From Pyrinomonadaceae bacterium (GTDB lineage Bacteria > Acidobacteriota > Blastocatellia > Pyrinomonadales > Pyrinomonadaceae), in the NCBI GenBank assembly GCA_041743485.1, contig JBGTMR010000184.1:4242-68241 (forward strand): 64,000 nucleotides of DNA, in the 5' to 3' direction. A model generated the notes under the pieces. The model worked only from the letters and a program-made list of their open reading frames with translations, was not told the origin of the DNA and made no database searches. This document shows, in pieces, positions 28,088 to 53,123 of this stretch. Position 1 is the stretch's first letter. Each line of letters starts with the position of its first letter. Position numbers and translations under genes: made by a program.

Positions 28088-28119
28088 TTAGATACTGTAT
28101 TTAGATACTCTTTAGATAC
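28088..28119 (+). repeat. three TTAGATAC direct repeats upstream of rep
   Basis: TTAGATAC occurs at 28088, 28101 and 28112, about 150 nt upstream of the likely rep start. Confidence 0.8.
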
Positions 28120-28263
28120 ACAACACAGCATTCACACGGATATTGTGTCACGAAATACGGTTTGTACTTCGGTTGAAAAAGCGGTGTGTTGACAAGATTG
28201 AGTAGGGAACGAAGACAAAGAAAAGTCATTGTTGACGACATAAACGGTTTGAGGGGAAGGGGC

Positions 28264-37485: not shown

Positions 37486-37514
37486 AACGTTAAAAACCCC
37501 TGAAGAACTTGCGC

Positions 37515-37556
37515 GAGGTTGAGTATGCGGATGGCATACTCAACCTCTTTTTTTTA
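37515..37556 (+). terminator. rho-independent terminator
   Basis: Perfect 14-bp stem GAGGTTGAGTATGC (37515-37528) with GCATACTCAACCTC (37534-37547), a 5-nt loop, and a T8 run at 37548-37555. Confidence 0.85.
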
Positions 37557-37848
37557 TCGTTGAAGCGAACGCGGATTCGCCGTCATCCTCGAAAGTTAAA
37601 CGATTAAGCCGCCGCGTTCAGTCCCGTTTCAGTTCGAGTTCGTCCGAAGTTGTAGTCGTCGGAACAGAAGTTCAGCCCGCACACGCAAAATTGTCCCGCG
37701 AGCCGCTATCTTGTCTTATCAAATTTGTCCGAAACGAAATAAAAAGGCATCGCCGATGAAGTGCAAGGTATGACACTCAATGTCCCCAAGTGTTGACAGG
37801 GAATAGGTTACCGGCATCGGCGAAAAAACTGATATTGAATCCGTATGA

Positions 37849-37863
37849 CGGCATGAAGGTTGC
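37849..37863 (+). promoter_or_regulatory. candidate sigma54 (-24/-12) promoter
   Basis: cGGCAt-GAAGG-TTGCc compared with the consensus TGGCAC-N5-TTGCW. The GG-N10-GC spacing is correct. About 300 nt upstream of the DUF4331 start and about 1 kb downstream of a sigma54 activator gene. Confidence 0.25.
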
Positions 37864-38166
37864 CCTTACGATGTCACAATCTCCGAAGAAGATACCGACC
37901 TACACCTCACGTCACAATGCGTCCAAACATAAAAAGTTTCGCTGGACACACGATGTCCGATTGGCGTGCGTGCTGTTCGGGTTTGTAGTCGGAGAACATA
38001 AAAACCCGGCATCATCGCTAAAATGACACCGGGTCTTTGCTGACAACACATCCTCTACCGCATCCCTGCGTTATAGAATGCCTCGCCTGAACAGCACGCA
38101 TTTTAGCGCGACGGCGGTGGTAGTTTCAACCCTGAGAATCTCAGGGAGCAGCTAGGAGAAACCAAA

Positions 38167-40149
38167 ATGAAACACAGACCGTTAGTTGCAAACACATTAG
38201 CGTTTGCGATGGGGGCGGGCTTGCTGATCGCAGGCTTACCGTTCTCGCCGCAGACCACGACACGCGCCGCCGATCACCGCGACTCTTCAGTAAATGACGC
38301 GAGACCAGAGGGCGATTTCCCGGACGTTTTCGCACATGTCAGCCCGGATGACCAGAGCAAACTCGTGTTGAGCGTCAATACCAACCCGTTCGCCAATCCG
38401 AGCGAAATAGGGAGCTACCGCTTCGCGGCGGATTACCTTTATCAGATTAAGATTGACAACAACGGCGATGCCGTGCCTGACTACGTTGTCCAGTTCACCT
38501 TCGATAACAGTTCACAGCAAGTCTACGAGGTGAGAGCCGGACGACCCAACAGCCCGCACAGCCCGCGACTCTCGCCCGTCGTGGATACGCTGCTCAACGT
38601 CGAGCCGATCTGCAAAGCAATCACCTATCACGGCGGCGTGAACGGCGACGACTCGCCTGCGGTTCAGCCGCTGCCGGAAGCCAGCCCGACACCGGCACCC
38701 AGCCCGACACCGACGCCTAATCCCGCCGGTGGTCGCGAACCGGTAGCCGGACGCGACGGCGCGCGATGCTTCGTCGGTATTCGTGACGATCCATTCGTCA
38801 CCGATGTCGGTCAAGCGGTCTTCCGCATCGGTCTCAACCCGAATCCGCGCCGCAACTTCAACAATCACGAGCAGGAAGTGTTTCGTCAAAACACCGATGG
38901 CGGATTTCCTCTCACCTCGTTCGGTCCCACTCGCGGTCGTCCGAACGATCCCGCCGACCTTAACAGTGGACTTGACGGCTTCGGCGGCTTCAATGCGTCG
39001 GTGATGTCTGTCGAAATACCGAAGTCGTGGGTCAGAGGCACGGGTTTCGCCGCGATGGGTCCGGCTGTGCCGGATGCGCTCGACGCCGACGGCGACGGTA
39101 ATACCAACGAGCAGTTGGCGGCGAACACGATTCCCGCCGTTCCCGGCGGCATCGGCGTGTGGGCGACAGCCAGCATCGCCAAGAGCGACAACGGCAACGA
39201 GCGCATCGTGGCGAAACAGGGTGAGAAGGGCGGCATCTCATCGAGTTTTCAACAATTCGAGCGCATGGGGCAGCAGCTATTCAACACCGTCTGGATTTGG
39301 AGACAACCGCCGACCAACACGGTCAGCAATTTCCCCAACCTGACGGATGGTGAAATCAAGAACTTCTACAACCAACTGGCTCCCGAACACGATGTGGAGA
39401 ACTTCGGCTACTTGATTCCCGATGCGTTAGTCGCCGTCCCACAGTTTGGCGAAGACAGCATTCAGGAACGAAGATCGATTCTTACGACAGGCGGCTTCAC
39501 CACACCGGGATTCGGAACAGCTTATCTGCTCGATCAGTTACCGGCTCCTTTCAACGCGATACGAAGCGCGAATCCTGATAAGCGTCTGCTTCAGAGGCTG
39601 CTTCTTCCCGACTATCTGCGCCTCGATTTGGATCGCCAGTCGAGCGTCTCACCCGCATTGCCCGGCGCGCAGGCGTCGAACAACGGCGGCAACGACCTCG
39701 GTCTTCTTCAGTTCGGCTTGCAAAACGGACGCCGGACTGCGGACGACGTAACGGACATCTTGCTCCGTTTCGCTCGTGAATTAGCCGACGTATGTTACAC
39801 ACCCGCCGGAGAAACCGCCGCCGGGCGTCGTTGTCTGCGTGGCGTGTCGTCGGCATTTCCTGCGACGCCTCCGGGCATCATCTCGGATTCGCGCGTCACG
39901 GCGGTTCTGCAAGGCACGGACTTCATCGAGCCGGACATCAACCCTGACCCGCTTGACCCGCTCGGTGCCATCAACAACACGGCGAACAGCGGAAACGACC
40001 GCCTTTTGAATACAGAGTTCCCGTACTTCGCTTCACAACATCCGCAGCCGGGTGAGACTTTTGAAGATACGACCGGCTTCCCACGCGCGGCTGATCCGGC
40101 GATAGTCGTCTTTGGCGGCAGAGCCAATGACACGCAGATTAACCGCTAA
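38167..40149 (+). CDS. DUF4331-family secreted protein
   Basis: Signal peptide, then ADHRDSS...DFPDVFAHVSPDD...YLYQIKIDNNGDAVPDYVVQFTF. This is the same N-terminal pattern as the 578-aa protein at 50711-52447 (ANHREAP...DITDYFSFVSYDD...ILYEIKIDNNQDAIEDVTFQFRF). It fits DUF4331 (PF14224) as I recall it. Confidence 0.8.
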   Translation: MKHRPLVANTLAFAMGAGLLIAGLPFSPQTTTRAADHRDSSVNDARPEGDFPDVFAHVSPDDQSKLVLSVNTNPFANPSEIGSYRFAADYLYQIKIDNNGDAVPDYVVQFTFDNSSQQVYEVRAGRPNSPHSPRLSPVVDTLLNVEPICKAITYHGGVNGDDSPAVQPLPEASPTPAPSPTPTPNPAGGREPVAGRDGARCFVGIRDDPFVTDVGQAVFRIGLNPNPRRNFNNHEQEVFRQNTDGGFPLTSFGPTRGRPNDPADLNSGLDGFGGFNASVMSVEIPKSWVRGTGFAAMGPAVPDALDADGDGNTNEQLAANTIPAVPGGIGVWATASIAKSDNGNERIVAKQGEKGGISSSFQQFERMGQQLFNTVWIWRQPPTNTVSNFPNLTDGEIKNFYNQLAPEHDVENFGYLIPDALVAVPQFGEDSIQERRSILTTGGFTTPGFGTAYLLDQLPAPFNAIRSANPDKRLLQRLLLPDYLRLDLDRQSSVSPALPGAQASNNGGNDLGLLQFGLQNGRRTADDVTDILLRFARELADVCYTPAGETAAGRRCLRGVSSAFPATPPGIISDSRVTAVLQGTDFIEPDINPDPLDPLGAINNTANSGNDRLLNTEFPYFASQHPQPGETFEDTTGFPRAADPAIVVFGGRANDTQINR

Positions 40150-40255
40150 CGACCGCTTCGATATAATTTTAGTACGTCGAAGTTAAACACACGGGAAGGG
40201 CTTCTTTGAGCCGCAGGCTACCGAAGCCCTTCCCCTTAACTAACAAGGGTCGGAA

Positions 40256-41407
40256 ATGATGAAAAAATTTCTGCTCTCGATTCTCTCTCTCGCCTTGTTC
40301 TCCATCCTCGTCGGAGCGGCTTACATCTTCGCTCCGTTTAAGATGCGAGAGTCAATCAACGGCGGGGCAGTTTCAACTCATAACACTAACGAGGCAAGTG
40401 CGGTCGGACACCGTTCGCTGCAAACCCGAATGGTGGTTTTTCACGAATCCCGCATCGCCAACCAGCCGAAGGATGCGGAAGCCTACCGCTCTCTCGCCCT
40501 CGCGTTAATCACTCGCGGCGAAACGACCGGCGAACCCGCCGATTACGACCACGCATGGACTGAACTCGATCACGCCGAGACGATTGAACCGCGCGATCTT
40601 CGCACAGTCCGCGCACGGGCGAAGCTGTTGCAGTCGCGGCATCGTTTCGGGAACGCCCGATTCGTCGCCGAACAAGGATTGAAAAAAGATGCGGAAGACA
40701 CCGACCTGATCGTAACGGCAGGCAACGCCGCACTTGCGATGGGAGATTTCGACGGAGCCGAAGCCCACTTTCAAAAGCTCGTCACCCTCGCCCCCAAATC
40801 GCAGACGGCGTGGGCGAGTTTCTCCTATCTCGCGGAGATGCGCGGCAACCTCGACGAAGCCGCCGCGATGATGGAAAAAGCTCTGGAAACCGGATATAAG
40901 AAGAACGTCAACTTCGCAACCCGCGCGTGGCTGCACACCATCTTAGGCGAAATCGAAGCGAAGCGCGGCAAACTCGATGTCGCGGCTACCCATTACAAAC
41001 TCGCTCTGAAGAATGTTCCCGATTATCGTCTCGCGTTGGAGTTCACAGCCGACATGGATTTGTGGCAAGGTAATCTCAAATCGGCGGAAGAAGGCTACCG
41101 CAATCTCCTCGCAAAGCAATTCGACCCGAAGATACAGCTTCGTCTCTCAGACCTTCTCGAACGTCAGGGGAACAAGGATGAAGCGGCGCGTTTGCGCGAC
41201 GAAAGTTTGCGCTTTTACGAGCGCGTCGTCGCGGGCGGCAACGAAGGATACTTGCGAGATTTGGCGACCCTCGACCTCGCCGCCGGACGATACGGGCGGG
41301 CGGCGGAACTCGCGCGGCGTGATGTCGTTTTGCGCCCGACGATGGAAAGTCGGATGCTTTACGCGAGCGTACTCAAGAAAGCGGAAGCGGCGGGTGTGTC
41401 GCTTTAG
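40256..41407 (+). CDS. membrane-anchored TPR-repeat protein
   Basis: N-terminal TM segment (FLLSILSLALFSILVGAAYIF) followed by a TPR array. Confidence 0.8.
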   Translation: MMKKFLLSILSLALFSILVGAAYIFAPFKMRESINGGAVSTHNTNEASAVGHRSLQTRMVVFHESRIANQPKDAEAYRSLALALITRGETTGEPADYDHAWTELDHAETIEPRDLRTVRARAKLLQSRHRFGNARFVAEQGLKKDAEDTDLIVTAGNAALAMGDFDGAEAHFQKLVTLAPKSQTAWASFSYLAEMRGNLDEAAAMMEKALETGYKKNVNFATRAWLHTILGEIEAKRGKLDVAATHYKLALKNVPDYRLALEFTADMDLWQGNLKSAEEGYRNLLAKQFDPKIQLRLSDLLERQGNKDEAARLRDESLRFYERVVAGGNEGYLRDLATLDLAAGRYGRAAELARRDVVLRPTMESRMLYASVLKKAEAAGVSL

Positions 41408-41511
41408 CCGAACAGGAATAATTAAAGCAACGGCGGTGATTTATAAGTAATCCCGGTTCTCGCACCCTTCGGTTTAACTCGAATTTTCCGAAGTCCGCAT
41501 TAAGGAATTCA

Positions 41512-43914
41512 ATGAAAAGTATTCGCCAAGCTTCAATTCGCCCGCGCATCACGTCGTCGCTAGTCTTGGCGGTATTCCTCATCATTGGCTTCGCAGGCGC
41601 GGCAATCGCGCACCCGCTCGGAAACTTCACCATCAATCATTTCGCCCGTTTAGAGGTTGGCGACGAACGTATAAACATCCGCTTCGTCGTTGACATGGCG
41701 GAAATCCCCACGCTTCAGGAGATGCAGACGATGAACGCGGGGGCGGACGGCTCTCCGTCAAACGCGGAACTCGACGCTTATCTGGCGCGCGTCTCGACAG
41801 GATATGCCGACGGATTGCGGCTCACCGTTGACGGCAAACGCATTCCTCTCCAAATCGCCGCGCAGAGAATCGCCACGTTGACGGGCGACGGCGGGTTGCC
41901 GACCTTGCGCGTCGAATGCGACCTCACCGGCATAATTCCCGCCGGAAGCACAGACGCCGCCCACCGCTTAAAATTTGAAGACACGAATCATCCTACTCGT
42001 ATCGGCTGGCACGAAATCATCGTCGCTCCGACAACCGGAATTTCAATCTTTAACACTTATGCTTTCGCCGACGGCATTTCCGACGAACTCAAAGCCTATC
42101 CGAAAGATTTAATCATCGCCCCGCTCAGCGAACGCATTGCCGAACTGCAATTCACGCAAGGCGACGCACCGGCGGGAGCGAGTCGGCTTCGGACGCGCGG
42201 CGGCATACTCGCCACCGCGTCAAGTATGCGAAACACCGATGCGTCGCGCGCGAATACCGCGACGGGCGCGGCGGAAAACGGCGCGGCAACGAAAGCACGC
42301 GACCGCTTCGCCGAATTGTTGGACGTAAAGGAACTGACCTTGCCCGCCGCCCTGCTCGGCTTGCTCATCGCCGCTTTTCTCGGCGCGGCGCATTCCTTTT
42401 CGCCCGGTCACGGTAAAACCGTCGTCGGTGCTTATCTCGTCGGTTCGCGCGGGACGTGGCGGCACGCCGCTTTCTTGGGCGCGACCGTCACCATCACGCA
42501 CACACTCGGCGTTTTCGCACTCGGCATCGTGACGCTTTTCGCTTCGCAATACATCGTCCCCGAACGCCTCATACCGATTCTCAGTTTCGTCTCCGGGGCG
42601 ATAGTTTTACTTATCGGCTTGAGTCTCTTCATCAAACGTCTGCGCTCGGTGCTGGGTCTTCAATCGGTTTCTCATTTCCACACGCATGACGGACTCACGC
42701 GCGAACATGATGATGTCCACTTGCGTGATAATCACCACGACGATATAGACCCCGCGCTGATGCATTCGCACGGCGGCGGCGTCGCGCACTCGCACCTGCC
42801 GCCGGGAGCCGACGGCGTACCCGTGACGTGGCGCAGTCTGCTCGGATTGGGAATCTCCGGCGGTCTCGTGCCTTGCCCGTCGGCACTCGTCGTGCTGCTC
42901 TCGGCTATCACGCTCAACCGCACGGGCTACGGCTTACTGCTCGTCACCTCGTTCAGTCTCGGACTCGCGGCAACGCTCACAGCCATCGGCTTGGTTTTCG
43001 TTTATGCCGGACAGTGGATGAAGGAGCGCGCGGGCGTCGAGCGTTTCCAGACGTGGGGGCGCGTGCTTCCGACGTTCAGTGCCTTCGTCATCGTATGCGT
43101 CGGGGCAATACTCTGTTACGAAGCGTTGACGCAAGCCGGAATGGTGACATTCTCGGCGGGGCGTCTCGGCGAACTGTTCACGAGTTCGGTATCGTCCGCG
43201 AGTTCGCTTTCGACCGCATCGGTTCTCTTTTTCGGCTTCGGCTTGGGACTCAAACACGCGGTCGAAGCCGACCATCTCGCGGCGGTTTCGGCAATTGTCA
43301 GTGAACGGAAAAGCCTGCTCAGTTCGTCGCTCATCGGCGGACTGTGGGGCATCGGTCACACCATCTCGCTGTTTGCGGTCGGCGTCGTCGTCATTCTGCT
43401 TCACGTCGAAATCAGTGAGCGAACGGCACAGGCACTCGAATTCGGCGTCGCCATCATGCTCGTCGCGCTCGGCGTCAACGCCCTCAACAAAATTGTCAGA
43501 GGCAAATTTCACACGCACCCTCACGAACACGGCGACCGCGCCCACATTCATCCGCACCTCCACGACGGCACGCCCGAACCCGATTCAAACACGCATCACG
43601 GCTACCGCATCGGCAAACGTCCGCTCATTATCGGCATGGTTCACGGATTGGCGGGAAGTGCGGCGTTGATGCTGCTCGTACTTTCAACCATCTCCACGCC
43701 GCTCGTCGGACTCCTCTACATCATCATTTTCGGCATCGGCTCAATCGGCGGAATGATATTGATGAGTACGCTGGTCGGGCTGCCGCTAAGTCTGACGGCG
43801 AACAGTTCCGCCCGCGCGAATCTCGCCATACGCGGGGCGGCGGGATTGTTCAGTTTAGGCTTCGGCTTGTTCATGGTCTATGAAATCGGCTTTGTCGGAG
43901 GTCTCTTTCGCTAG
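41512..43914 (+). CDS. three-module membrane protein: periplasmic HPLGNF domain + RcnA/NicO-like domain with a His-rich loop + second NiCoT-like (HX4DH) domain
   Basis: Signal peptide ...GAAIA|HPLGNFTINHF. The sequence FSPGHGKTVVGAYLVGSRGTWRHA...THTLGV, followed by the loop HFHTHDGLTREHDDVHLRDNHHDDIDPALMHSHGGGVAHSH, is RcnA-like. LGLKHAVEADHLAAV matches the NiCoT HX4DH signature and is followed by a second His loop, HTHPHEHGDRAHIHPHLHD. Confidence 0.8.
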   Translation: MKSIRQASIRPRITSSLVLAVFLIIGFAGAAIAHPLGNFTINHFARLEVGDERINIRFVVDMAEIPTLQEMQTMNAGADGSPSNAELDAYLARVSTGYADGLRLTVDGKRIPLQIAAQRIATLTGDGGLPTLRVECDLTGIIPAGSTDAAHRLKFEDTNHPTRIGWHEIIVAPTTGISIFNTYAFADGISDELKAYPKDLIIAPLSERIAELQFTQGDAPAGASRLRTRGGILATASSMRNTDASRANTATGAAENGAATKARDRFAELLDVKELTLPAALLGLLIAAFLGAAHSFSPGHGKTVVGAYLVGSRGTWRHAAFLGATVTITHTLGVFALGIVTLFASQYIVPERLIPILSFVSGAIVLLIGLSLFIKRLRSVLGLQSVSHFHTHDGLTREHDDVHLRDNHHDDIDPALMHSHGGGVAHSHLPPGADGVPVTWRSLLGLGISGGLVPCPSALVVLLSAITLNRTGYGLLLVTSFSLGLAATLTAIGLVFVYAGQWMKERAGVERFQTWGRVLPTFSAFVIVCVGAILCYEALTQAGMVTFSAGRLGELFTSSVSSASSLSTASVLFFGFGLGLKHAVEADHLAAVSAIVSERKSLLSSSLIGGLWGIGHTISLFAVGVVVILLHVEISERTAQALEFGVAIMLVALGVNALNKIVRGKFHTHPHEHGDRAHIHPHLHDGTPEPDSNTHHGYRIGKRPLIIGMVHGLAGSAALMLLVLSTISTPLVGLLYIIIFGIGSIGGMILMSTLVGLPLSLTANSSARANLAIRGAAGLFSLGFGLFMVYEIGFVGGLFR

Positions 43915-43957
43915 CAGGTATCCGACTTAGGAAGGAAAAAAGAAAAGGAGAAAGCAT

Positions 43958-44650
43958 ATGAAACGAAGCATTACACTGATTGTCGGCTGTCTTTTGACGG
44001 CATGTCTCATCGGCAGCGTCTGGTTCATGGGAACTGCCCAGGTTGTCAGCACTGCGAAGCGCGGCGCGCAGGACAACTCTCGCGCTCCTGTGCTGCGCGC
44101 CCGTGCAATCTTGCGTGGCGTGCCCGGCTCCGGCATCGCAGGCGTGGTCACTTTCACGCAAAGGAGCGAGGATTCGCCGGAGCCGGGCGTGGATGTCGTG
44201 GCGCGGGTCATCGGTCGGTTGGGAGATTTGCGCCCCGGTCGCCATGGGATGCACATTCATGAGTTTGCGCGGTGCGAACCGCCCAGTTTTGATAGCGCGG
44301 GCGGACACTTTGATCCCGGTATGTTCGGTAATTCAACTCCGGTGGACTTGAATCATCCGTTCCATATGGGCGACATCCCTAATCTCATAGTCAACAGAGT
44401 CCGCAACTTTAGTGTAGGAAAGCTCAAACATCAGACGAGCCGAATCACGCTTTCGGACGGACCCCTCAGTGTGTTTGATACGGACGGCAGCGCGGTTATT
44501 CTTCACTTAAACGAAGACCGTGGTGAGCCCGGCGTTACGGGCGCATCGGGTGGTGCGCGGATCGCCTGCGGCGTTATCGAGCGTGTCACCGGCGAACACA
44601 GTTCCGATGACATGGATGATCTAAGCAATATAGATGATCTAAGCAATTAG
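43958..44650 (+). CDS. sodC: Cu/Zn superoxide dismutase-family lipoprotein
   Basis: Lipobox LLTAC. HGMHIHEF, GGHFDPG, HMGDIPNL and GARIACGVIE are the SodC metal-ligand and disulfide pattern. Confidence 0.85.
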   Translation: MKRSITLIVGCLLTACLIGSVWFMGTAQVVSTAKRGAQDNSRAPVLRARAILRGVPGSGIAGVVTFTQRSEDSPEPGVDVVARVIGRLGDLRPGRHGMHIHEFARCEPPSFDSAGGHFDPGMFGNSTPVDLNHPFHMGDIPNLIVNRVRNFSVGKLKHQTSRITLSDGPLSVFDTDGSAVILHLNEDRGEPGVTGASGGARIACGVIERVTGEHSSDDMDDLSNIDDLSN

Positions 44651-44703
44651 GCATCTTAAACTTCGTTGTTCAAAATTTTTGATACCCGGAAAGGAATCTT
44701 CAA

Positions 44704-44907
44704 ATGGCAGAGCATACGCACACGCATACTCACGAGGAAGTCACGCACACGCACGAACATACGCATGACGATCCGCAACACGCGCACACTCATCCGGGAG
44801 GAGACGAACCGCACACGCACGAACACACGCATCCCGCGACGACTCACACGCATGAGCATGAGCAGGGCGAACACCACGAACATAATCACGTCGAGCAACA
44901 ATCTTGA
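44704..44907 (+). CDS. histidine-rich small protein (22 His in 67 aa)
   Basis: MAEHTHTHTHEEVTHTHEHTHDDPQHAHTHPGGDEPHTHEHTHPATTHTHEHEQGEHHEHNHVEQQS. An AAGGA RBS lies about 10 nt upstream. No signal peptide and no Cys. Confidence 0.7.
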   Translation: MAEHTHTHTHEEVTHTHEHTHDDPQHAHTHPGGDEPHTHEHTHPATTHTHEHEQGEHHEHNHVEQQS

Positions 44908-44928
44908 ATCGAGAAGTTTTCGTCGCAC

Positions 44929-44957
44929 GTTCGGGCGCATTGACCTTGCGCCCGAAC
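44929..44957 (+). terminator. stem-loop downstream of the His-rich gene (possible terminator, no T-tract)
   Basis: GTTCGGGCGC (44929-38) pairs with GCGCCCGAAC (44948-57) across a 9-nt loop. Confidence 0.35.
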
Positions 44958-45084
44958 GCTCTGCGGCTTAAGGAGCGAAATCAAATGAGTGCATCGCCAG
45001 TACATATCACACGCTGTCTCGAAAGCGTTTTTATGCGCGCAGGCGTGCTACGAATTGCAAAATCGTGTGAACGAACGGGGTAAC

Positions 45085-45330
45085 TGAAGCCTGTGCATAA
45101 ATCATCGCGTAGCGATGAGATGAATTTAGCCGTGCGTTTCAACGCACGGAAAACGGAACAACCGAATCGGCGTCGCGGCAGCGAAGATTGAAAAAACGCC
45201 GGTCAGGTTCAATCGTCGCTGCCGCGACGACGGATATTGTCATCGTCTCCCGTGCGTTAAAACGCACGGCTAAATTCACGGCATCGCTCACGCGATGAAA
45301 ACAAAGCAACTTTAATTTGCACAGGCTTCA
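45085..45330. mobile_element. MITE-like 246-bp palindromic element with a 6-bp target-site duplication
   Basis: Perfect 13-bp terminal inverted repeats, TGAAGCCTGTGCA (45085-45097) and TGCACAGGCTTCA (45318-45330). Flanked on both sides by GGTAAC (45079-45084 and 45331-45336). The arms are largely reverse-complementary (for example CCGTGCGTTTCAACGCACGG and CCGTGCGTTAAAACGCACGG). No ORF. Confidence 0.8.
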
Positions 45331-45441
45331 GGTAACTAAGAGCTAGGTACACCGTCTCTCAATCGAATCTGAAACGAAGTCGAAGCGCGGGGTGTGTTGT
45401 TGACGGAAAGAAACCGCACCGTTCATTTGAGGAGTAAAACC

Positions 45442-47877
45442 ATGAGTAACTTGGCAAGAATCGTAATCTTTTCGGCTTTGTTCGTTGTTCCCTGTGTTCC
45501 GCGAGTGGTGGCGCAATCGTCGAACCAACCGGGTCAAATCGCAGGGTCGCGGCAGACAATTCCGACGCGCATTCTTTCAGGAGCGATTCTGTCGCAACAG
45601 GATGAGAGCGTCGCGGGTGCGACGTTGATTGTGCGTTCGGCTTCGGGTGAGGAGCGCACCACGACAAACGACAAAGGTGCTTTCCGGCTCACCGTCACGG
45701 GCGATTCGTTCGTGCTTCGCGTCGAAGGTAAAAACATCACCCCGCTTGAAAAGACATTCACCGCAAATACCGTGACGGAAGATTTGCAGTTGAAAATCGA
45801 AATCGTCGTTCCGCCGATTCACGAATCGGTCGTAATCGTCGCCGCGCAGCTTGACCCGGCTATTGAGCGGCGTAACGATGCGCTTTACAAAAACACGTTG
45901 TTCTCCAGAGACGATCAGTTGTTACAAAGCTTAAACGGCGGCATCAACGCCGGGCAGCACGAAGGCGGCGGGAAGTCTCTTGAGGTGCGCCGTTTCGGAT
46001 TCAACTTGGATCACGGCGGCGTCAACGGCGGCTTGAAAATCCTCGTTGACGACGTGCAGCAGAATCAAGGAACACAGGGACACGGGCAAGGTTATCTCGG
46101 TTCGCTAAAGAGCCTGACGCCCGAACTCGTCCAAGACGTTGACATCATAAACGGACCTTTCAGCGCGCAGTACGGCGACTTTTCGAGTCTCGGCGTCGTC
46201 CATATACGCTTGCGTGAATTTTTGCCCGACACCCTGACCGCGCGCGTGCATGGCGGCTCGTTCAACACCTTCCGTTCGTTTCTCGCTTACAGCCCGAAAT
46301 TAAAGAACGCCGATTCATTCATCGCTTATGAAGCGTCGCGCTCGGACGGTCCGTTCATCAGCCCGCTTCGCTACAAGCGCGATAATGTGACGGGCAACTA
46401 CACGCGCAGGTTGAGCGATAAATCCGCGCTCGGTTTCAAGTTCAACGCGGGACGCAACGACTTCTTTTCATCCGGTCAGATACCGCTCGATGAAGTGGCG
46501 GCGGGACGCCTCGACCGTTTCGGTTTCATTGACCCGGAGAACGGCGGGAAGGTGCAATCGGGAACTGCCGGTGTTTATTACCGCACGGAGGATTCAAACG
46601 GAAACATCTTCAAGATTGATGGATACGTCACCCGCTCGCTGTTCGATTTGTGGTCTAACTTTACGTTCTTCCTGAGCGATGAAGAGTTCGGCGACGAAAT
46701 TCAGCAACACGATTCGCGCCTTCAGCAAGGCGTCAACGCGCAGTACATTCGCCCTTACAAACTCTTCGGGCAGCAAGCGGTGTTAATCGCGGGCGGCAAC
46801 CTGCTCGCGCTTCAAGCCAACGTCGGGCTTTATCCTTCCATCGCACGCAATCCGAACAGAGCTTTTATCACGCGCAGCAACCTCGCCGACTGCGGCGGCA
46901 ACGGAAATCCCGGCACGCCCGGACTGCCCGACAATACCGTCTCTTCCTGCTTTCTGCTCACAGACGCCAACGCCGATGTGACGAACGGCGCGGGATATGT
47001 GCAACACGGACTCGACCTTTTCGACGGTCGCCTGCATCTCGAAGGCGGTCTGCGTCTCGATTACTTTCGCTTCACGGTTGCCGACTTAATTCAACCGGAG
47101 TTTTCCGGCACACGCGGCGGGGCGCGCTGGCAACCGAAAGCCACCGTCGCTTACACGCCGTCCACACGCCTTCCGGCAACCTTCTATTTCAACTACGGTC
47201 GCGGCATTGCGAGCCAAGACGCGCGCGGCGTCGTCCGTGACCCATCGGGACCCGTCATCTCCACGACGGACTTTTATCAACTCGGCTCGTCGCACAACAC
47301 AAAGCGGTTCTCGCTTAGTGCCGATTTGTTTTTGATAGATACCTCGAACCAACAGGTCTATATCCCCGATGACGGCAGCATAGAATTTGCCGGAGCGAGT
47401 CGGGCTTACGGCTTTGAAGCGAAATCTTCAATTCACATCACGCGCTTGCTCACTTTGAACGGCGGCATCACGCAAGTCGGCAACTCTTTTTACAAAGGCA
47501 CAAACCCGCGCGTCTATGTTGACAGCGCGCCGCACACAGTCGCCAACGCCGGATTAACGCTTGCCGGTTTTCAGGGTTGGACAAGTTCGCTTCGCTATCG
47601 TCACATCGGCAACTATCGCCTTGACGGTGAGGACGCAAGCATCCGCGCCGCCGGACACGACGTAGTTGATTTCAGCGTCGCCAAACGGCTTCGCCGATGG
47701 GTTGATTTCAATGTTTCGATTGACAATCTTTTCAACAAGCGTTACTTCGAGACGCAGAACTACTTCGAGTCGCGCCTTCGTCCGGGCGACCCTGTAATCT
47801 CGCGCATCCACGCGACGCCCGGCTATCCCTTCGGGGTAACGGCGGGACTCACATTCCGGTTATTCGGTGAGAAATGA
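45442..47877 (+). CDS. TonB-dependent outer-membrane receptor with CarboxypepD_reg-like N-domain
   Basis: Start at ATG 45442 after GAGGAG. Signal peptide. ...VAGATLIVRSASGEERTTTNDKGAFRL is a carboxypeptidase-regulatory-like fold. This is followed by a plug region (VVIVAAQLDP..) and a long beta-barrel-type sequence. Confidence 0.85.
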   Translation: MSNLARIVIFSALFVVPCVPRVVAQSSNQPGQIAGSRQTIPTRILSGAILSQQDESVAGATLIVRSASGEERTTTNDKGAFRLTVTGDSFVLRVEGKNITPLEKTFTANTVTEDLQLKIEIVVPPIHESVVIVAAQLDPAIERRNDALYKNTLFSRDDQLLQSLNGGINAGQHEGGGKSLEVRRFGFNLDHGGVNGGLKILVDDVQQNQGTQGHGQGYLGSLKSLTPELVQDVDIINGPFSAQYGDFSSLGVVHIRLREFLPDTLTARVHGGSFNTFRSFLAYSPKLKNADSFIAYEASRSDGPFISPLRYKRDNVTGNYTRRLSDKSALGFKFNAGRNDFFSSGQIPLDEVAAGRLDRFGFIDPENGGKVQSGTAGVYYRTEDSNGNIFKIDGYVTRSLFDLWSNFTFFLSDEEFGDEIQQHDSRLQQGVNAQYIRPYKLFGQQAVLIAGGNLLALQANVGLYPSIARNPNRAFITRSNLADCGGNGNPGTPGLPDNTVSSCFLLTDANADVTNGAGYVQHGLDLFDGRLHLEGGLRLDYFRFTVADLIQPEFSGTRGGARWQPKATVAYTPSTRLPATFYFNYGRGIASQDARGVVRDPSGPVISTTDFYQLGSSHNTKRFSLSADLFLIDTSNQQVYIPDDGSIEFAGASRAYGFEAKSSIHITRLLTLNGGITQVGNSFYKGTNPRVYVDSAPHTVANAGLTLAGFQGWTSSLRYRHIGNYRLDGEDASIRAAGHDVVDFSVAKRLRRWVDFNVSIDNLFNKRYFETQNYFESRLRPGDPVISRIHATPGYPFGVTAGLTFRLFGEK

Positions 47878-47934
47878 CGGGCGTCGGTGACCTAAACCCT
47901 GCTCCATAAATTGAAATCTGTCACGAATCGTGCT

Positions 47935-49248
47935 TCAGGTGGCGATGGAGATTAGCGTCCGCCGTGCGACATCGGCTTGTAGAACATTAAACGTGGGATT
48001 GGCTTCGAGCGCGCGTTTCAAATACTTCGCGGCGTTGCGACGGTCGCCGATGCCGTGATGAATCATGCCCGCGTGATAGAACAATCCGGCGTCGCGCGTG
48101 CCGAGTCGCAAGGCTTCATCCATGCTCGCTTTCGCTTCCGCGAGTTGACCTTTCTTGAACAGACACCACGCGAGGGCGTCGGACGTGTAGATGTCGGCGC
48201 GCTCCGTTCGTTCGCGGCGCGCGACGGCGAGGGCTTCGTCCAGTTTCGTGTCGCGGTCAGCCCAGAAAAGGGCGAGGCTGCGCGAGTAGGTTCGGCTTTC
48301 GGTTGACCCTGCGCGTTCGATAAATTCGACGAGTTCGTATTGACGCCGCGCTTCTTCGGAGCGTCCGAGCGAGGTGTAAATGTCGCCGAGCGCGATAGCC
48401 GTTTCGGGAAGGGGAACGCGCGCCTGCGCTTGTTTATAAAACTCTATGGCGGAGTCCGTGTCGGCGGCGGCGAGACGCGCGCGCCCTTTCGCGGCTAACG
48501 CCGGGTGATAATTCGGGAAGACGTGGAGCGCGACATCGTATTCGTATTCGGCGGCGGCGAGTTTGCCCGCGTTCATCAATTCGTCGCCGAGATGCACGCG
48601 ACACCACGCGATGCTTTCCGGGTCTTTCGCCGCCGATGCCGCCGCGCGCATCATCTCGATTGCGCCGTCGGTATCACCGTGCAGCGCGCGCAGGTATGAA
48701 GCGCGCGCGTAAGCCGAGGTGTCTTGGCGCAAATCAATCATCGTCTGCGCGGTCTCGAACGCCTGTTCATAACGTCCGAGTTCGACAAGGGCGTCCGTCA
48801 TCGCGCCGTAGTTTTCAGAATCCAGCGGCTGCATCGCACGCGCCTTTTGCGCGACTTCGAGTGCTTCGCCGAATCGGTGATAGGTGAGCAGCAATGCCGC
48901 TTTCAACTTGAGCGCGTCGTAATTGTTTTCGTCTCCGGCGATCTCGAACGAACGTGCGAGTGCCGCTTCAGCCCTTGCGTTGAAGCCGAAGTCTCCGGTC
49001 TCACGCGCCTTCTTCATGTAGGCGGCGGACAGCAGGTTATAACCTTTAGAGTCCGAGCCGTCGCGCCCGACCGCGTTTTGCGCCGCTTGAATTTGCCTGT
49101 CTGCTGTCGTCAAGCGGGTATTAGTCGCGTCCGGTTGCGGGCGAGATGCCACCGCGCGCGGGGCGCGAGTCGTCACGGAGCGAATGCCGAAAACGAAGGC
49201 GATGCCGCCTAGTAGTACGACTAGGAGAATCAGAATTATGTTACGCAT
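47935..49248 (-). CDS. membrane-anchored TPR-repeat protein (437 aa)
   Basis: N-terminal TM segment (IILILLVVLLGGIAFVFGI) plus a TPR array. Paralog of 49301-50602. Confidence 0.85.
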   Translation of the reverse strand: MRNIILILLVVLLGGIAFVFGIRSVTTRAPRAVASRPQPDATNTRLTTADRQIQAAQNAVGRDGSDSKGYNLLSAAYMKKARETGDFGFNARAEAALARSFEIAGDENNYDALKLKAALLLTYHRFGEALEVAQKARAMQPLDSENYGAMTDALVELGRYEQAFETAQTMIDLRQDTSAYARASYLRALHGDTDGAIEMMRAAASAAKDPESIAWCRVHLGDELMNAGKLAAAEYEYDVALHVFPNYHPALAAKGRARLAAADTDSAIEFYKQAQARVPLPETAIALGDIYTSLGRSEEARRQYELVEFIERAGSTESRTYSRSLALFWADRDTKLDEALAVARRERTERADIYTSDALAWCLFKKGQLAEAKASMDEALRLGTRDAGLFYHAGMIHHGIGDRRNAAKYLKRALEANPTFNVLQADVARRTLISIAT

Positions 49249-49300
49249 ATCTTATTTACCGGATTGATATAAGCCGAGAATCTATCGTTGTATTTTTTCT

Positions 49301-50602
49301 TTAACGCCCGGAGCGGCTGCCCGCAGCGGCGGGTGACAGAAGCGCGAGTTTTTCGCGCGCCGATTTCGCGGATGCCGCCAATGGGTTGAGATTGACCGAC
49401 TGCCGCAGATGGAGTTCAGCTTTGATGGGATCGTTCGACTTCAAAAATATCGAACCGGCGTGATACAGAAAGTCTGCGTCGCGCACGCCGACGGCGAGTA
49501 TCTTTTCCATTTGACGACGAGCTTCGGGGTAGTCTCCGTTGACATAGAGTGACCACGCGAATGCGTCGAGGGTATGCACATCTTGACGGCGGGCGACTTC
49601 GATACGCGCGATGCCGAGTGCTTCCACAGGCTTTCGCGCGTGGTCGGCATAATAGAAAATCAGTTCGCGGTTGGCGTTGTCGGCGTCGTCCTTTAGGGCG
49701 CGTGCCTGCTTTTCAAATTCGACATAGAGACGGTTCGATTCTTCAAGCTGTCCGGCTTGTTCGAGGGCGTTTGCCAGTGCGTACAGATTGCGCGGATGAG
49801 GCGCGGTGCGGTTCACCTGACGCCGCAGTTCGACGGCTTCGGCATGTCGTTGTTGAGCGGAGCGGACGCCCGCGAGGTCGGCTAGCGCGTAGTTATATTC
49901 GGGGAGCAGTCCGAGAGCTTGACGCAGTAATTTCTCGGCTGAGTTTGAGTCTCCGGTCGAGAGCGACAAGCGCGCGGCTTGCGTCAGCAATCGCGCGCGC
50001 TCTTCCGTTTCGCCGAACAGCGTCGCCTCATAAGCCGCGTACAGCATCTCCGACGCTCCCGCCGTGTCACCGAAAACTTCCCTCAAACGCGCGATGCGCG
50101 TGAGACCCTGCGCTCCGGCGTGGCGTAGGTCGAGCATCCACTGCACGGCATCTTCGGCTTCCTTGTAGTTGCCGAGTTCAATGGCGGCATCGGCGATAAA
50201 GCCGTACACGGAGATGTCGTCGGGAAGCCGCGTGTTGAGTTTCTTCGCCAACGTCAGAGCTTTGGCGAATTCGTGTTTGCCGAGCAGAATCTGAACCTGA
50301 ATTTTTTGCGCCCCGTTGTTATCGGGAGCTAAACGAAAAGAGTTTTGAAGCGATGCTTCGGCTTGGCGGTAGTAAAACGGGTCGGCGGTTTCACGCGCGC
50401 GGCGTGCGAACGCGGACGCTAATTCATTATGGTATTCGACGTGTTCGGGATTTTTGCGGACGGCATTTTGCGCCGAAGCTATTTTTTGCAGAGTCGGCGA
50501 GAGCGGCTTATCAGCTTGGATTGGGGCAGATGATAATTGCGCGGAGACGCCGAGCGTCAACAGAAGAATGAGTGAAGCCGCCGCTATTGGAATTTTTGTC
50601 AT
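49301..50602 (-). CDS. secreted TPR-repeat protein (paralog of 47935-49248)
   Basis: Signal peptide MTKIPIAAASLILLLTLGVSAQ. Shared blocks with the neighbour include SAQNAVRK/AAQNAVGR and RRARETADPF/KKARETGDF. An alternative GTG start is at 50614. Confidence 0.85.
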   Translation of the reverse strand: MTKIPIAAASLILLLTLGVSAQLSSAPIQADKPLSPTLQKIASAQNAVRKNPEHVEYHNELASAFARRARETADPFYYRQAEASLQNSFRLAPDNNGAQKIQVQILLGKHEFAKALTLAKKLNTRLPDDISVYGFIADAAIELGNYKEAEDAVQWMLDLRHAGAQGLTRIARLREVFGDTAGASEMLYAAYEATLFGETEERARLLTQAARLSLSTGDSNSAEKLLRQALGLLPEYNYALADLAGVRSAQQRHAEAVELRRQVNRTAPHPRNLYALANALEQAGQLEESNRLYVEFEKQARALKDDADNANRELIFYYADHARKPVEALGIARIEVARRQDVHTLDAFAWSLYVNGDYPEARRQMEKILAVGVRDADFLYHAGSIFLKSNDPIKAELHLRQSVNLNPLAASAKSAREKLALLSPAAAGSRSGR

Positions 50603-50710
50603 CGGGTAAGTCACCGGGAAAGTTGAGGTGTGCGGTCATGTTCCTTGCGGGACATGACCGCACGATTGCAAACGTGTGTAGAGAACCGGGCATCGTTGCA
50701 AACTCGATGG

Positions 50711-52447
50711 TTACGGGTTTTCGTCGGGAGGCGTGCAGGGAGCACCGTTGCCCATCGTGCAGCCCGGCTCGCCGGGATCAATGTGTCGGCTGTTGCGCCC
50801 GTCGTGCGCGAACCACACATATGGGAACGTCTCAAATTGAGGCGTGTCGTTGACGTTCACGGCATCGCCGAGAATGTTGTTTGGCGGGATGTTGAACGCG
50901 GGATTAAAGACTCCGGCGGTCAACCGCAAAGTGATGTCGGTGACATCATCGGTTACGCGGCGACCGTTCGGATAGCCCGCCGGATCGCGGCGTGTTCCGA
51001 GACCGACCAACCCCAAGCGACTCCTCGTCGCCACGGGTGTCGGCGGTACGCCGGTGTTAAGTCGCAGCAAGTCCGCGATTGGTCCGACAGGTGTACCGGG
51101 CGCGGCAATCGGTGGTAAATACTGGTAAAGCGGTCGCAAATCATCGCGCGGCGGGTCTGGGACTCTGATCACCGGAACCTGCGCGTTGAGTTGGCGCGCG
51201 AGATAAGGATCGAAGAAGAAACGGCTGAACCGTTCATCGCTTCTCGGCTCGCTGACGCTGAACACATCCTTGAATCCCGTGCCGACGAACAATTCGTTGG
51301 TCAAGGCATTAGCCATGCGCGCCACCTGACGGAATTGACCGTTGGTGTTCTGGTTCTGGAAACGCGATGCTTCTTCAAACGTCAATCCCCGATTGCCGTT
51401 TCCAAAGCTGTTGCCGTTGCCGTTGTTATCGAATGTACGGCGGATTGTTACCTGTTGCCGGGAAGTCGTACCCCATGAACCGATGGTGGCTGCCGGACTG
51501 GTAGCAGGTTCTCTGCGCCCCGTGCGCGTCAGCATCGTAATCGGGACTTCGATGGCGATGACGTTGACGTTGTAACCGGAGACATCCTCTTGGTTGATGT
51601 TGATGTTGTCGTTGTTGTCTATTTCGGCTTGGGCGGCGAGTCCGGCGGCGCGTAGATTGCCCGTGTCGAATGCCGCGCCCAAGTCAATCCAGAAAGGATC
51701 GTCAACTGTACCGGCAAACACACGGACGCCGTTGTCCAGATTGTTAGTAGCCTGCTGAAACAGACCACCCGGAGCTTCATATGTAGGCATAGTGCGTGGA
51801 CCGACGTTCGAGGGAAGGGCAATCAATCGCCTATTGCCCGTCAAGTCGGTTTGATTATTGCCATTACCGTTGCCGTTGTTACCGTTATTGCCATTACCGT
51901 TGCCGTTGTTGCCGTTGCCGCGCAACATCGTCACCGAGTAGGTCTGGCGTAGGAAGATGCCTTCGGAACCGGGTCCGTCGAGGGCGGTGACGGCGGGCGG
52001 AACTATCGGCGTGCCGGGAGGCGCGCCTGCCGGACCGCCCGGAGGCGCATTGACACCCTGTCCCTGTCCGAAGGGCGTGGAGTAGATGCCTTCGGCGATG
52101 CGCTGTGGAATCTGCGGCGGCAAGCGGATTTCGGTTTGGAAGCGAAATTGAAACGTCACGTCTTCGATGGCATCCTGATTGTTGTCAATCTTGATTTCAT
52201 AAAGGATGTTCGGATCGAAGGGAAAATAATTGGGACCGTTGGAAGGCTCCAACAGTGGGTCAACGTTTAGCAGAAACGTCACCTTACTCGGATCGTCGTA
52301 ACTGACAAACGAAAAATAATCGGTGATGTCAGCCAAACGGTCGAGCGCAGTAATCGGTGCTTCGCGGTGATTGGCAGCGAAACTCACGTTCGGCGCGAGC
52401 AGCATCGCCGCTATCGTCAGTGCGACGAAAGCTTTGAATCTTTTCAT
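50711..52447 (-). CDS. DUF4331-family secreted protein with Gly/Asn repeat insert
   Basis: Signal peptide ...APNVSFA|ANHREAPITALDRLADITDYFSF...ILYEIKIDNNQDAIEDVTFQFRF. Internal GNGNNGNGNGNNGNNGNGNGNN tract. Confidence 0.85.
   Translation of the reverse strand: MKRFKAFVALTIAAMLLAPNVSFAANHREAPITALDRLADITDYFSFVSYDDPSKVTFLLNVDPLLEPSNGPNYFPFDPNILYEIKIDNNQDAIEDVTFQFRFQTEIRLPPQIPQRIAEGIYSTPFGQGQGVNAPPGGPAGAPPGTPIVPPAVTALDGPGSEGIFLRQTYSVTMLRGNGNNGNGNGNNGNNGNGNGNNQTDLTGNRRLIALPSNVGPRTMPTYEAPGGLFQQATNNLDNGVRVFAGTVDDPFWIDLGAAFDTGNLRAAGLAAQAEIDNNDNININQEDVSGYNVNVIAIEVPITMLTRTGRREPATSPAATIGSWGTTSRQQVTIRRTFDNNGNGNSFGNGNRGLTFEEASRFQNQNTNGQFRQVARMANALTNELFVGTGFKDVFSVSEPRSDERFSRFFFDPYLARQLNAQVPVIRVPDPPRDDLRPLYQYLPPIAAPGTPVGPIADLLRLNTGVPPTPVATRSRLGLVGLGTRRDPAGYPNGRRVTDDVTDITLRLTAGVFNPAFNIPPNNILGDAVNVNDTPQFETFPYVWFAHDGRNSRHIDPGEPGCTMGNGAPCTPPDENP
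51857..51916. repeat. 2 x 30-bp tandem repeat encoding the (G/N)n tract
   Basis: ATTGCCATTACCGTTGCCGTTGTT occurs at 51857-51880 and 51887-51910, each followed by a 6-nt (A/G)CCGTT. Confidence 0.85.
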
Positions 52448-52849
52448 GTGCTTCTCCTCGTCAAGTTTTTTTGGGAGCGTTAATGAAGATTGCTAAATTA
52501 GCGATCACTGCTCAAAGAACGCTGCCGATAATCCCAACGGTCATCGCGCTTCAAACACAGTTCTACCGTCAGTATTCACATACCGGTGCAAGCTAAATCA
52601 ACAATGTCGGCTACTGATATATCATGCCTCCTTGCCAAGTTATTCCCGCAGCACTCCGGTATGTTCGCAATTTGAAACCGTGCGTCCCGTTTTTGCTTCG
52701 TAACAAATCATCCGCGCTTCAAGTGCGCCTTCCGCGTCTTCATTGACGCGCACATAATTTAATCTGTAGGGGAACTTCGCTTCGCAAGTCTTCGAGAGTC
52801 AATGTTGCGGCTTCGCCGAGTTCGACGTAGCGCGTCCACGATCCGGTGT

Positions 52850-53123
52850 TGAGGGAGGTGGTTTAATTATTTAGGACACAAAACTCTCGCTAGAATAGAG
52901 CGATGAGAAAATACGACGAAGAATATAAACAAGCAGCCGTCAAGAAAATACACGACGGTCAATCGGTGGCAAGCGTCGCACGCGAGTTAGGCGTGGCGGG
53001 GTAGTTTATTGCATAACTGGAAACGACTGGTGAGCGAAAGCAGATCAGACGCCGACAAGGAAACGCTTTCACCGAAGGAAGCGGATTCGGGAACTGGAGA
53101 TGGAACGCGACATCCTAAAGAAG
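52850..53123 (+). mobile_element. 5' fragment of a second, diverged copy of the IS3-family element
   Basis: TGAGGGAGGTGGTTTAATTATTTAGGACACAAAACTC... followed by ATGAGAAAATACGACGAAGAATATAAACAAGCAGCC... aligns with the reverse complement of 32173-31900. Similarity ends after ...CATCCTAAAGAAG at 53123. Confidence 0.8.

Follow-up and report, generated by a model that had tools for sequence, protein, structure and literature searches.

For [NiFe]-hydrogenase, urease, and other enzymes that need nickel, the supply of the metal is limiting. In Helicobacter pylori, the nickel pathway includes the receptors FrpB4 and FecA3, the NiCoT permease NixA, NiuBDE, the peptides Hpn and Hpn-2, and the regulator NikR. 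Acidobacteriota are abundant in soil and some of them scavenge atmospheric H2, and to our knowledge their nickel-import route has not previously been defined. The anglerases, described recently, are His1 domains that are tethered to a permease and were proposed to fish metal ions into the permease mouth (Franco Cairo et al., Nat Commun 2025, PMC12537917). The domain Ang-1 bound Cu2+ with a dissociation constant (Kd) of 74 nM and Ni2+ with a Kd of 220 nM, and the same study described DUF4198 as a secreted nickel-binding protein (PMC12537917). Here, a stretch of 64 kb from a Pyrinomonadaceae bacterium of the Acidobacteriota (contig JBGTMR010000184.1; the whole stretch is called the window) was analysed. 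Between positions 38167 and 52447, it carries genes for two DUF4331 proteins (PF14224), their TPR partners, a NicO-type permease fusion, and a TonB-dependent receptor (TBDR). The locus probably encodes an envelope-spanning pathway for the high-affinity acquisition of nickel.

To place the locus among other genomes, an alignment of DUF4331 was scanned over one genome per species, which returned at least 592 confirmed matches, and the best 80 loci were kept. The window proteins were searched by phmmer against all open reading frames (ORFs) of these loci. Of the 71 loci in which the downstream DNA was long enough, 64 had a TPR gene directly after DUF4331. Among the seven that seemed to be exceptions, six were looked at more closely, and four of them (L046, L060, L062, and L079, from Competibacter, other Gammaproteobacteria, and a Deltaproteobacteria metagenome-assembled genome (MAG)) carried a divergent TPR that was recognized by Pfam. 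Farther downstream, a homolog of the NicO fusion was present in 45 of the 59 loci in which the DNA reached far enough. The canonical operon ran from DUF4331 through a TPR_B-type gene and a TPR_C-type gene to the NicO fusion, and both TPR proteins were frequently merged into a single protein of 700-930 residues. The TPR_B type was the one directly following DUF4331 in nearly all loci, while the TPR_C type lay just before the NicO fusion in the canonical order and just before the receptor in L087 and L096. The DUF4331-TPR couple was found in Acidobacteriota, Chloroflexota, Proteobacteria, Myxococcota, and a Planctomycetota MAG. The permease was of the NicO type in Acidobacteriota, Chloroflexota, and the Planctomycetota MAG and of the HupE/UreJ-2 type in Proteobacteria. 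In L046, L062, and L079, the gene next after the TPR gene encoded a HupE_UreJ_2 permease (PF13795, E ~1e-46), the periplasmic N-domain of which begins ..A/HKPSDSYL (here and below, a slash marks the predicted cleavage site). A distant DUF4331 subfamily, reached through its representative P0292, showed the DUF4331-TPR-NicO triad in Thermomicrobiales and another lineage, each triad being adjoined by a gene for an extracytoplasmic function (ECF) sigma factor. Because DUF4331 and TPR were kept together while the permease was swapped between two unrelated families, a shared function is strongly indicated. Judged from gene order, DUF4331 and TPR evidently form a real couple that travels with an inner-membrane permease of a nickel family.

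Within the window, the nine ORFs named by an earlier reading made from the letters alone (the sequence-only reading) were all present in the ORF track at the coordinates it gave, and a Pfam search of the window proteins confirmed every family that it had called from motifs. It had also assigned a signal peptide or anchor to every product except the His-rich peptide, and inspection by eye agreed. The canonical DUF4331_2 (50711-52447, minus strand; E 2e-90) and the divergent paralog DUF4331_1 (38167-40149, plus strand; E 1e-30) scored 304.7 and 107.9 bits, respectively, against the PF14224 gathering threshold of 27 bits, and they shared only ~27% identity. DUF4331_1 is partnered by TPR_A (40256-41407, plus strand), which has an N-terminal membrane anchor and matched several TPR Pfam families. 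TPR_B (49301-50614/50602, with a signal peptide) and TPR_C (47935-49248, membrane-anchored) lie on the minus strand and also matched TPR families; they were 34% identical to each other and 23-29% identical to TPR_A. From the two occurrences in this one locus, a functional couple had been proposed, and the adjacency of the two genes in other genomes was far beyond what chance would give. The NicO fusion and the receptor, which had likewise been placed in the system, turned out to be a conserved third partner and a recurrent partner, respectively, and the proposed route from the outer membrane through the periplasm to the inner membrane stands as the best reading.

The NicO-type fusion (41512-43914, plus strand) is a protein of 800 residues with a signal peptide, a periplasmic His1 β-sandwich, an RcnA-like half of six transmembrane segments, and a NiCoT-like half, and a His-rich loop was found in each of the two halves. 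Residues 285-520 matched PF03824 with 61 bits (cut-off, 27.7), which places the protein in the NicO family. The match to the RcnA subfamily NF007454 was 114.5 bits against a cut-off of 195, and that to the NiCoT family of HoxN and NixA (TIGR00802) was only 20.8 bits against 333, over residues 575-648. The NiCoT-like half (43234-43914) was recognized from this weak match and from the HX4DH motif that is the signature of NiCoTs (H582-AVEA-D587-H588), which was invariant or nearly so in sets of 21 and 116 homologs. This half was missing from the shorter fusions of Bryobacterales and was encoded by a separate gene in L007 and L084. The periplasmic domain (residues 34 to ~235; 41611-42216) is predicted to begin, after cleavage, at AIA/H34PLGNF (HPLGNFTINH), and H34 was invariant in 116 homologs. 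The same SP/HP[LM]GNF start was found in the Chloroflexota and Planctomycetota partners, with the general pattern ..AxA/HP[LM]GNF[ST][IV]N. An AlphaFold (AF2) model of the domain had a predicted local distance difference test (pLDDT) score above 90. A Foldseek search with this model retrieved the structure of Ang-1 with Cu (9gce) with a probability of 1.00, an E value of 1.8e-3, and a target template-modelling (TM) score of 0.52 over 187 columns, and the second match was PA4063 with Zn (7bgo; probability 0.97). Neither this domain nor the HupE fusion of L079 matched any PDB sequence, and a BLASTP comparison of the N-domain of the NicO fusion with that of the HupE fusion gave no match. By analogy with Ang-1, the N-domain would bind metal at its His1.

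The TonB-dependent receptor gene (45442-47877, plus strand) encodes CarboxypepD_reg, Plug (PF07715), and barrel (PF00593) domains, the latter two above the Pfam cut-offs, and the protein belongs to the TBDR family. The ATG at 45442 was preferred as the start over an alternative GTG at 45394 because it is preceded by a GAGGAG ribosome-binding site and yields a clean signal peptide. A metagenome scan with the receptor gave 80 orthologous loci with 54-73% identity. In 38 loci, the upstream DNA extended for 3.2 kb or more; DUF4331 was present in 19 of these, and a TPR gene was immediately upstream of the receptor in 15, forming DUF4331-TPR_B-TBDR operons. The permease was found in the same clusters, in the order DUF4331-TPR-TBDR-NicO fusion in L105 and DUF4331-TPR-NicO fusion-TBDR in L113 and L103. 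In the close receptor relatives L087 and L096, the gene directly before the receptor was of the TPR_C type. In a neighbour-joining tree of 73 receptors, those adjacent to nikR and those adjacent to DUF4331 or TPR interleaved, and the window receptor grouped with L090, L091, and L106 (NikR-adjacent) and with L096 and L087 (TPR-adjacent). Since a TonB-dependent receptor is an importer and shares these operons, uptake is the likely direction.

A search of all loci showed that nikR adjoined 15 of the receptor orthologs, and its identity was confirmed by the Pfam domains NikR_C and RHH. In L016 and L051, it also immediately preceded the DUF4331 operon, and it was near the operon in L043 and L084, the latter with a NiCoT-like gene nearby as well. 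In L016 and L051, which are Bryobacterales loci, the order was box, nikR, X237, DUF4331, TPR, TPR, and NicO. A tally of perfect palindromes upstream of the receptor genes gave no signal, and it was from reading the spacers between nikR and the receptor that the repeats emerged, as paired GTGYTAC half-sites with a 13-nt spacer, some pairs being direct and others inverted. The published NikR signal is GTGTTAC-[N13/14]-GTAACAC, also in reversed orientations (PMC545781), and the half-site and spacing found in Acidobacteriota equal it. With at most one mismatch, 32 NikR-type sites were found in 2.5 Mb of loci, and most of them were immediately upstream of a receptor, nikR, or NiCoT-like gene. In the window, a degenerate site (GTGCTAC-N13-GTGTGAA; 45045-45071, plus strand) is located where the boxes occur in orthologous loci. 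In a Blastocatellia genome of 7.9 Mb, a gene for LarC (Ni_insertion, PF01969; L085:1774-3006) precedes a DUF4331-TPR-NicO operon by 4 kb, which gives a weak hint of a nickel context. According to the sequence-only reading, neither the metal nor the direction could be decided; the NikR genes and boxes, the HX4DH motif, and the linkage to the receptor now favour nickel and uptake. Nickel is the best-supported metal because of the NikR genes and boxes, the receptor tree, the invariant HX4DH, and the DUF4198 gene beside DUF4331 in L169, so that, as far as the sequences can tell, the locus most likely serves the uptake of nickel.

The X237 gene encodes a secreted protein of ~235 residues with a PEP-CTERM-like C-terminus (..PEPTCLL..RRQ) and no Pfam match. 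It was directly upstream of DUF4331 in 32 loci of Bryobacterales and Acidobacteriaceae (for example, L001:9291-10004, L016:9240-9977, and L051:2913-3593), where it counts as an additional conserved gene of the operon, and was absent from the window.

The most conserved feature of DUF4331 was the very start of the mature protein. The hallmark of the family, a signal peptide followed by [AS][SN]H[R]EAP, was present in 352 of 389 members, the remainder being mostly N-terminal fragments, and the tripeptide ending at the His was SSH, ASH, or ANH in 344 of these 352. Among 102 representatives with complete N-termini, the signal peptide closed with a typical AXA site: Ala was at position -1 in 86, position -3 was occupied by A, V, L, T, S, or G, and His was at position +3 in all. 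The predicted mature starts in the window were ..SFA/ANHREAP for DUF4331_2 and ..TRA/ADHRDSS for DUF4331_1, both of the form X-X-His. In an ATCUN (amino-terminal Cu(II)- and Ni(II)-binding) site, the N-terminal amine, two backbone amides, and the imidazole of His3 bind Ni(II) or Cu(II). With the predicted processing, the DUF4331 sequences have the free N-terminus, the His3, and a residue other than Pro at position 2 that such a site needs. Four leaderless representatives (P0264, P0336, P0343, and P0380) begin with M-S/T-S-H-R/M-E-A-P, which shows that apparently cytoplasmic forms also exist; removal of the Met would keep X-X-His. We infer from these sequences that DUF4331 binds metal through an ATCUN-type N-terminus.

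The AF2 model of DUF4331_2 had a pLDDT of 80.6 and a predicted TM score of 0.84. Compared with PDB folds, it gave no match at E ≤1e-3 and TM scores below 0.2, and a DUF4331 profile found no relative among the PDB sequences. PF14224 comprised 4348 clusters at 50% identity (E 1e-3 or better). The absence of an assigned function, which had been noted earlier, agreed with the literature searched, where no paper naming DUF4331, PF14224, or IPR025566 was found. The literature on ATCUN sites with periplasmic nickel yielded only the work on PcoB, and we know of no ATCUN-type component described for a bacterial metal-import operon. In L169 (6523-10843), from an 8-Mb genome, two tandem DUF4331 genes were followed by a DUF4198 gene, the product of which starts with His1. 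The second of these DUF4331 proteins carries a FlgD_ig domain and, at its C-terminus, a type IX secretion system (T9SS; Por_Secre_tail) domain, and some DUF4331 proteins are therefore probably surface-displayed or secreted.

In the pathway that we consider probable, Ni(II), either free or as a small chelate, would be imported through the outer membrane by the TonB-dependent receptor. The secreted DUF4331, a protein of new fold, would capture the metal in the periplasm with its NH2-X-X-His terminus. The TPR proteins would act as adaptors, a soluble one following DUF4331 and an anchored one preceding the permease, and would together bring DUF4331 to the permease. The His1 domain of the permease would take the ion and feed it into the NicO/RcnA-like channel, which is extended here by the NiCoT-like half. 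In the cytoplasm, the peptide with 33% His would serve as a buffer for the nickel that enters, the part played by Hpn in Helicobacter. Expression would be under NikR in the relatives; in this contig, an ECF sigma factor and a sigma-54 activator are upstream. The order of the hand-offs and the role of the TPR proteins are what we infer from the arrangement, and the two modules may split the work, with DUF4331_2 and the TPR_B type pairing with the receptor and the TPR_A/TPR_C type with the permease. A more specific proposal, which we put forward tentatively and would not yet rely on, is that DUF4331 is an ATCUN nickel shuttle of new fold that, with TPR, couples the TonB-dependent receptor to anglerase-type permeases of either the NicO or the HupE/UreJ-2 kind. 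If this were true, the shuttle route would be an unrecognised form of nickel import in several phyla and at least 592 species genomes, and it would be the main nickel supply line of soil Acidobacteriota.

Several observations weigh against nickel uptake by such a route. No nikR was found among the ORFs of the 64-kb window, and no nickel enzyme genes were found in it. The NikR-like site of the window has 2-3 mismatches, ~5% of random 520-nt windows contained one as good (p ~0.05), and a miniature inverted-repeat transposable element (MITE) separates it from the receptor gene. Within 400 nt upstream of DUF4331 genes, NikR boxes were not enriched over the control. The direct link from a box to DUF4331 was confined to three loci (L016, L051, and L027), in all of which the X237 gene separates DUF4331 from the promoter. 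DUF4331 was missing from the vicinity of half of the receptor orthologs. For the cleavage site of DUF4331 there was only a rule-based prediction, and the N-terminal segment was of low confidence in the model. A shuttle role is awkward for DUF4331 because nickel at ATCUN sites is held tightly and exchanges slowly. Both ATCUN sites and Ang-1 prefer Cu(II) to Ni(II), which makes copper a possible substrate. The subfamily nearest to the permease core was that of the RcnA efflux proteins, the cut-off of which it did not reach.

Three other explanations of the locus were weighed. DUF4331 and TPR could be accessory proteins that carry no metal themselves but process or strip an organic nickel chelate arriving through the receptor, assemble or stabilise the permease and receptor, or signal to the ECF or sigma-54 regulators. 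TPR proteins are typically scaffolds or assembly factors, although the PilW-, LapB-, and BamD-like NCBIfam matches of those studied here were far below the cut-offs. With ~500 residues, DUF4331 is large for a metallochaperone, and its invariant Asp, Asn, and Arg could make an active site or a Ca2+ site; in addition, ECF sigma genes are adjacent in several phyla, and the substrates of TonB-dependent receptors are usually chelates. However, the His fixed at mature position 3, in the leaderless members too, is hard to explain except as part of an N-terminal chelate, the fold of DUF4331 had no similarity to any enzyme, and no anti-sigma domain was detected. We therefore regard an accessory role as unlikely.

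Alternatively, the same architecture could scavenge copper, or Cu, Ni, and Co broadly, with Cu(II) caught at the X-X-His and His1 sites and destined for periplasmic or membrane cuproenzymes including the adjacent SodC. Ang-1, the closest solved relative of the N-domain, prefers Cu2+ (74 vs 220 nM) and was crystallised with Cu, ATCUN sites share the preference, and the sodC gene is only 44 nt downstream of the permease gene in the window. On the other hand, none of the 166 related loci had SodC, and no CopA, CueR, CsoR, CusF, PCuAC, or CopC was seen beside the system. The recurrent regulator was instead NikR with canonical boxes, the permeases (NicO with HX4DH, and HupE/UreJ) belong to nickel/cobalt families, and the nickel-binding DUF4198 neighbours DUF4331 in L169, all of which make a copper system decidedly unlikely. 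That the NicO fusion is an RcnA-like Ni/Co exporter on a mobile resistance determinant, with DUF4331 and TPR in an RcnB-like role, is very improbable: its best NCBIfam match was a nickel/cobalt efflux transporter (PRK10019, E 5e-33), it has RcnA-like His-rich loops, and the window contains many ParA, Rep-like, and transposase genes, but its score of 114.5 was under the family cut-off of 195, it shares operons with an importing TonB-dependent receptor, the linked regulator was NikR and not of the RcnR, CsoR, or ArsR type, the HupE/UreJ-2 uptake permease can replace it, and its anglerase-type domain belongs to a kind proposed for capture and uptake (PMC12537917).

The arrangement of the locus, two modules converging around the other genes, had been taken as a property of the system and proved to be peculiar to this contig. 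In the close relatives L083 and L084, the NicO fusions of which were up to 88% identical to that of the window, both modules are head-to-tail on one strand in the order Crp, ECF sigma (L084 only), sigma-54 activator, DUF4331_1, TPR_A, NicO fusion, DUF4331_2, and TPR_B, with TPR_C also on that strand in L083. DUF4331_1 keeps its place before TPR_A and the NicO fusion in both, and no gene was found between the NicO fusion and DUF4331_2. This order indicates that the two-module design is conserved in the lineage and the convergent layout is not. By comparison with these relatives, the convergent layout is evidently a local rearrangement, and the block of sodC, the His-rich peptide gene, the MITE, and the receptor gene is apparently an insertion that is not conserved in the lineage.

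In this block, the SodC-like protein (43958-44650, plus strand) matched Sod_Cu with 93.5 bits (E 2e-26), and its HxH, bridging His, His120, Arg, and both Cys aligned to 7b4o. One His of the Zn site was displaced relative to 7b4o and the NCBIfam equivalog cut-offs were not reached, but from its sequence the protein looks like an ordinary Cu,Zn superoxide dismutase (SOD). It had been counted as a member of the system; a SodC homolog occurred in none of the 166 related loci, which makes it a neighbour and not a component. The idea of a nickel-sparing SOD found no support. The His-rich peptide (44704-44907, plus strand; no signal peptide) has 22 His among its 67 residues (32.8%). One clear homolog was found, in L130, at the end of a cluster of a TBDR, nikR, a second receptor, and an SBP_bac_5/Opp-type ABC transporter (NikABCDE-like). 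Of the 50 nucleotide differences between the two genes, 35 fell on the third position of a codon; 26 of the codon changes were synonymous and 13 were non-synonymous, and this third-position bias indicates a real gene under purifying selection. By analogy, the peptide is a candidate cytoplasmic nickel buffer.

The MITE-like element (45079-45336) is a nested inverted repeat of 258 bp, with terminal and internal inverted repeats, and occurs as a single copy in the window. A sub-threshold match to the Rfam family Acido-Lenti-1 (33.2 vs 37 bits; 45103-45149, minus strand) sits in its hairpins, and the Acido-Lenti-1 small RNA motif may thus be part of a mobile element. The DNA around the metal locus is mobile or plasmid-like (24021-31822, 54200-55796, and 59603-60184), with genes for Fic, ParA (25958-26809), a 606-residue Rep-like protein with a C-terminal DnaA_N (28186-30006), and several transposase or integrase fragments, and the source contig of 68.9 kb may be a plasmid or island. 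Elsewhere in the window, a three-gene molybdopterin dehydrogenase cluster of the xanthine/CO dehydrogenase type (5294-9450, minus strand) encodes MoCoBD, FAD_binding_5/CO_deh_flav_C, and 2Fe-2S subunits and has no tie to the metal locus.

Upstream of DUF4331_1, on the plus strand, Pfam identified an ECF sigma factor (34440-34976) and a sigma-54 activator (35691-36878). The activator keeps its place in both L083 and L084, as does the ECF sigma in L084. Despite the conserved activator, no convincing sigma-54 promoter was found upstream of either DUF4331 gene. ECF sigma genes also adjoined DUF4331-TPR-NicO in Chloroflexota (L167:7095-7790 and L170:7138-7707, the latter accompanied by an RskA-type anti-sigma), and their presence there and in this lineage suggests ECF-sigma control where no nikR is adjacent. 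The ~170-nt leader of DUF4331_1 (38000-38166, plus strand) aligned with L083:6282-6445 and L084:6449-6620 far better than the remaining intergenic DNA. Its predicted fold contained a GC hairpin and a second structured domain, with a few compensatory changes among the three sequences, and the leader had no Rfam match. It may act as a metal-responsive cis-regulatory RNA of a new type, or it may represent a conserved promoter and operator. No riboswitch was found by the Rfam search of 37000-53500, which returned nothing besides the sub-threshold match to Acido-Lenti-1.

A palindrome between the Crp-family and ECF sigma genes (TGTTACACACTTATGAATATGTGTGTTAA; 34063-34090) was conserved in L084 (~2470-2500), with the inner ACTTATRAATATGT as its conserved core. 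It superficially looked like a NikR box in reversed orientation and was rejected as a NikR site since the NikR-like bases were not conserved in L084; perhaps it serves as operator for the neighbouring regulator of the Crp family.

With this locus, a large orphan family, PF14224, and its obligate TPR partner gain a testable function, and an ATCUN-type site is proposed as a working part of bacterial metal import. The anglerase concept would be widened from HupE/UreJ-2 to NicO permeases and set in a pathway from receptor to permease. The NikR-box motif and the receptor clade can improve the annotation of Acidobacteriota genomes.

When compared with described systems, the proposed pathway follows the logic of that in H. 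pylori, with a TonB-dependent receptor that would be under NikR in the relatives, a periplasmic nickel-handling step, a secondary permease of the nickel/cobalt superfamily with HX4DH, and a candidate cytoplasmic His-rich storage peptide. It differs in its periplasmic components, DUF4331, TPR, and the His1 domain, which have no relationship to NiuB/CeuE, in its permease, which joins several domains in one protein, and in its receptor, which, unlike those of H. pylori, belongs to a CarboxypepD_reg-type clade typical of Acidobacteria. E. coli RcnA/RcnB shares the six-transmembrane NicO core, the His-rich loop, and a periplasmic accessory protein, whereas the system studied here was below the RcnA cut-off, is linked to NikR and an outer-membrane importer instead of RcnR, and has an extra periplasmic His1 domain. 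PA4063 (7BGO) and Vibrio ZrgA (8F1B) differ as stand-alone proteins of Zn/ABC context that are regulated by Zur, and no link to Zur was seen here. Like DUF4198/NikK, DUF4331 is secreted, has an N-terminal chelating His, and has genomic ties to TonB-dependent receptors and NikR (PMC12537917; PMC545781); unlike DUF4198, it has the His at mature position 3 and not 1, is 2-3 times larger, has a different fold, and always has a TPR partner. The predicted termini S-S-H, A-S-H, and A-N-H fit those of ATCUN proteins such as serum albumin, histatin-5, and hepcidin, although most of the cases described so far are extracellular peptides or proteins of eukaryotes, unlike the bacterial DUF4331.

The closest likeness was to the anglerase-permease fusions (Ang-1/Ang-2-HupE/UreJ-2; PMC12537917; 9GCE), which also join a His1 β-sandwich to a nickel-family permease, and precisely this His1-HupE/UreJ-2 architecture closes the DUF4331-TPR operons of Proteobacteria. 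In contrast, the window permease is NicO/RcnA-like with a NiCoT-like half and not of the HupE/UreJ-2 type (PF13795), and its N-domain has no detectable sequence similarity to Ang-1. The anglerase paper made no link to DUF4331, TPR, or TonB-dependent receptors and mentioned no NicO fusions, and DUF4331 appeared only twice in its neighbour counts (PMC12537917). The sequence-only reading had presented the whole system as a candidate undescribed one, which holds for the DUF4331-TPR part; for the permease it has to be qualified, as the N-domain resembles the 2025 anglerase Ang-1 (PMC12537917). NikR-controlled nickel import by a TonB-dependent receptor with a NiCoT or HupE permease is thus of a known kind, as are the anglerase domains. 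The new elements are the conserved DUF4331-TPR pair in a nickel route, an anglerase-type fusion built on NicO, a protein without a known fold relative whose terminus is predicted to be of the ATCUN type, and the nickel-receptor clade and NikR box defined for Acidobacteriota.

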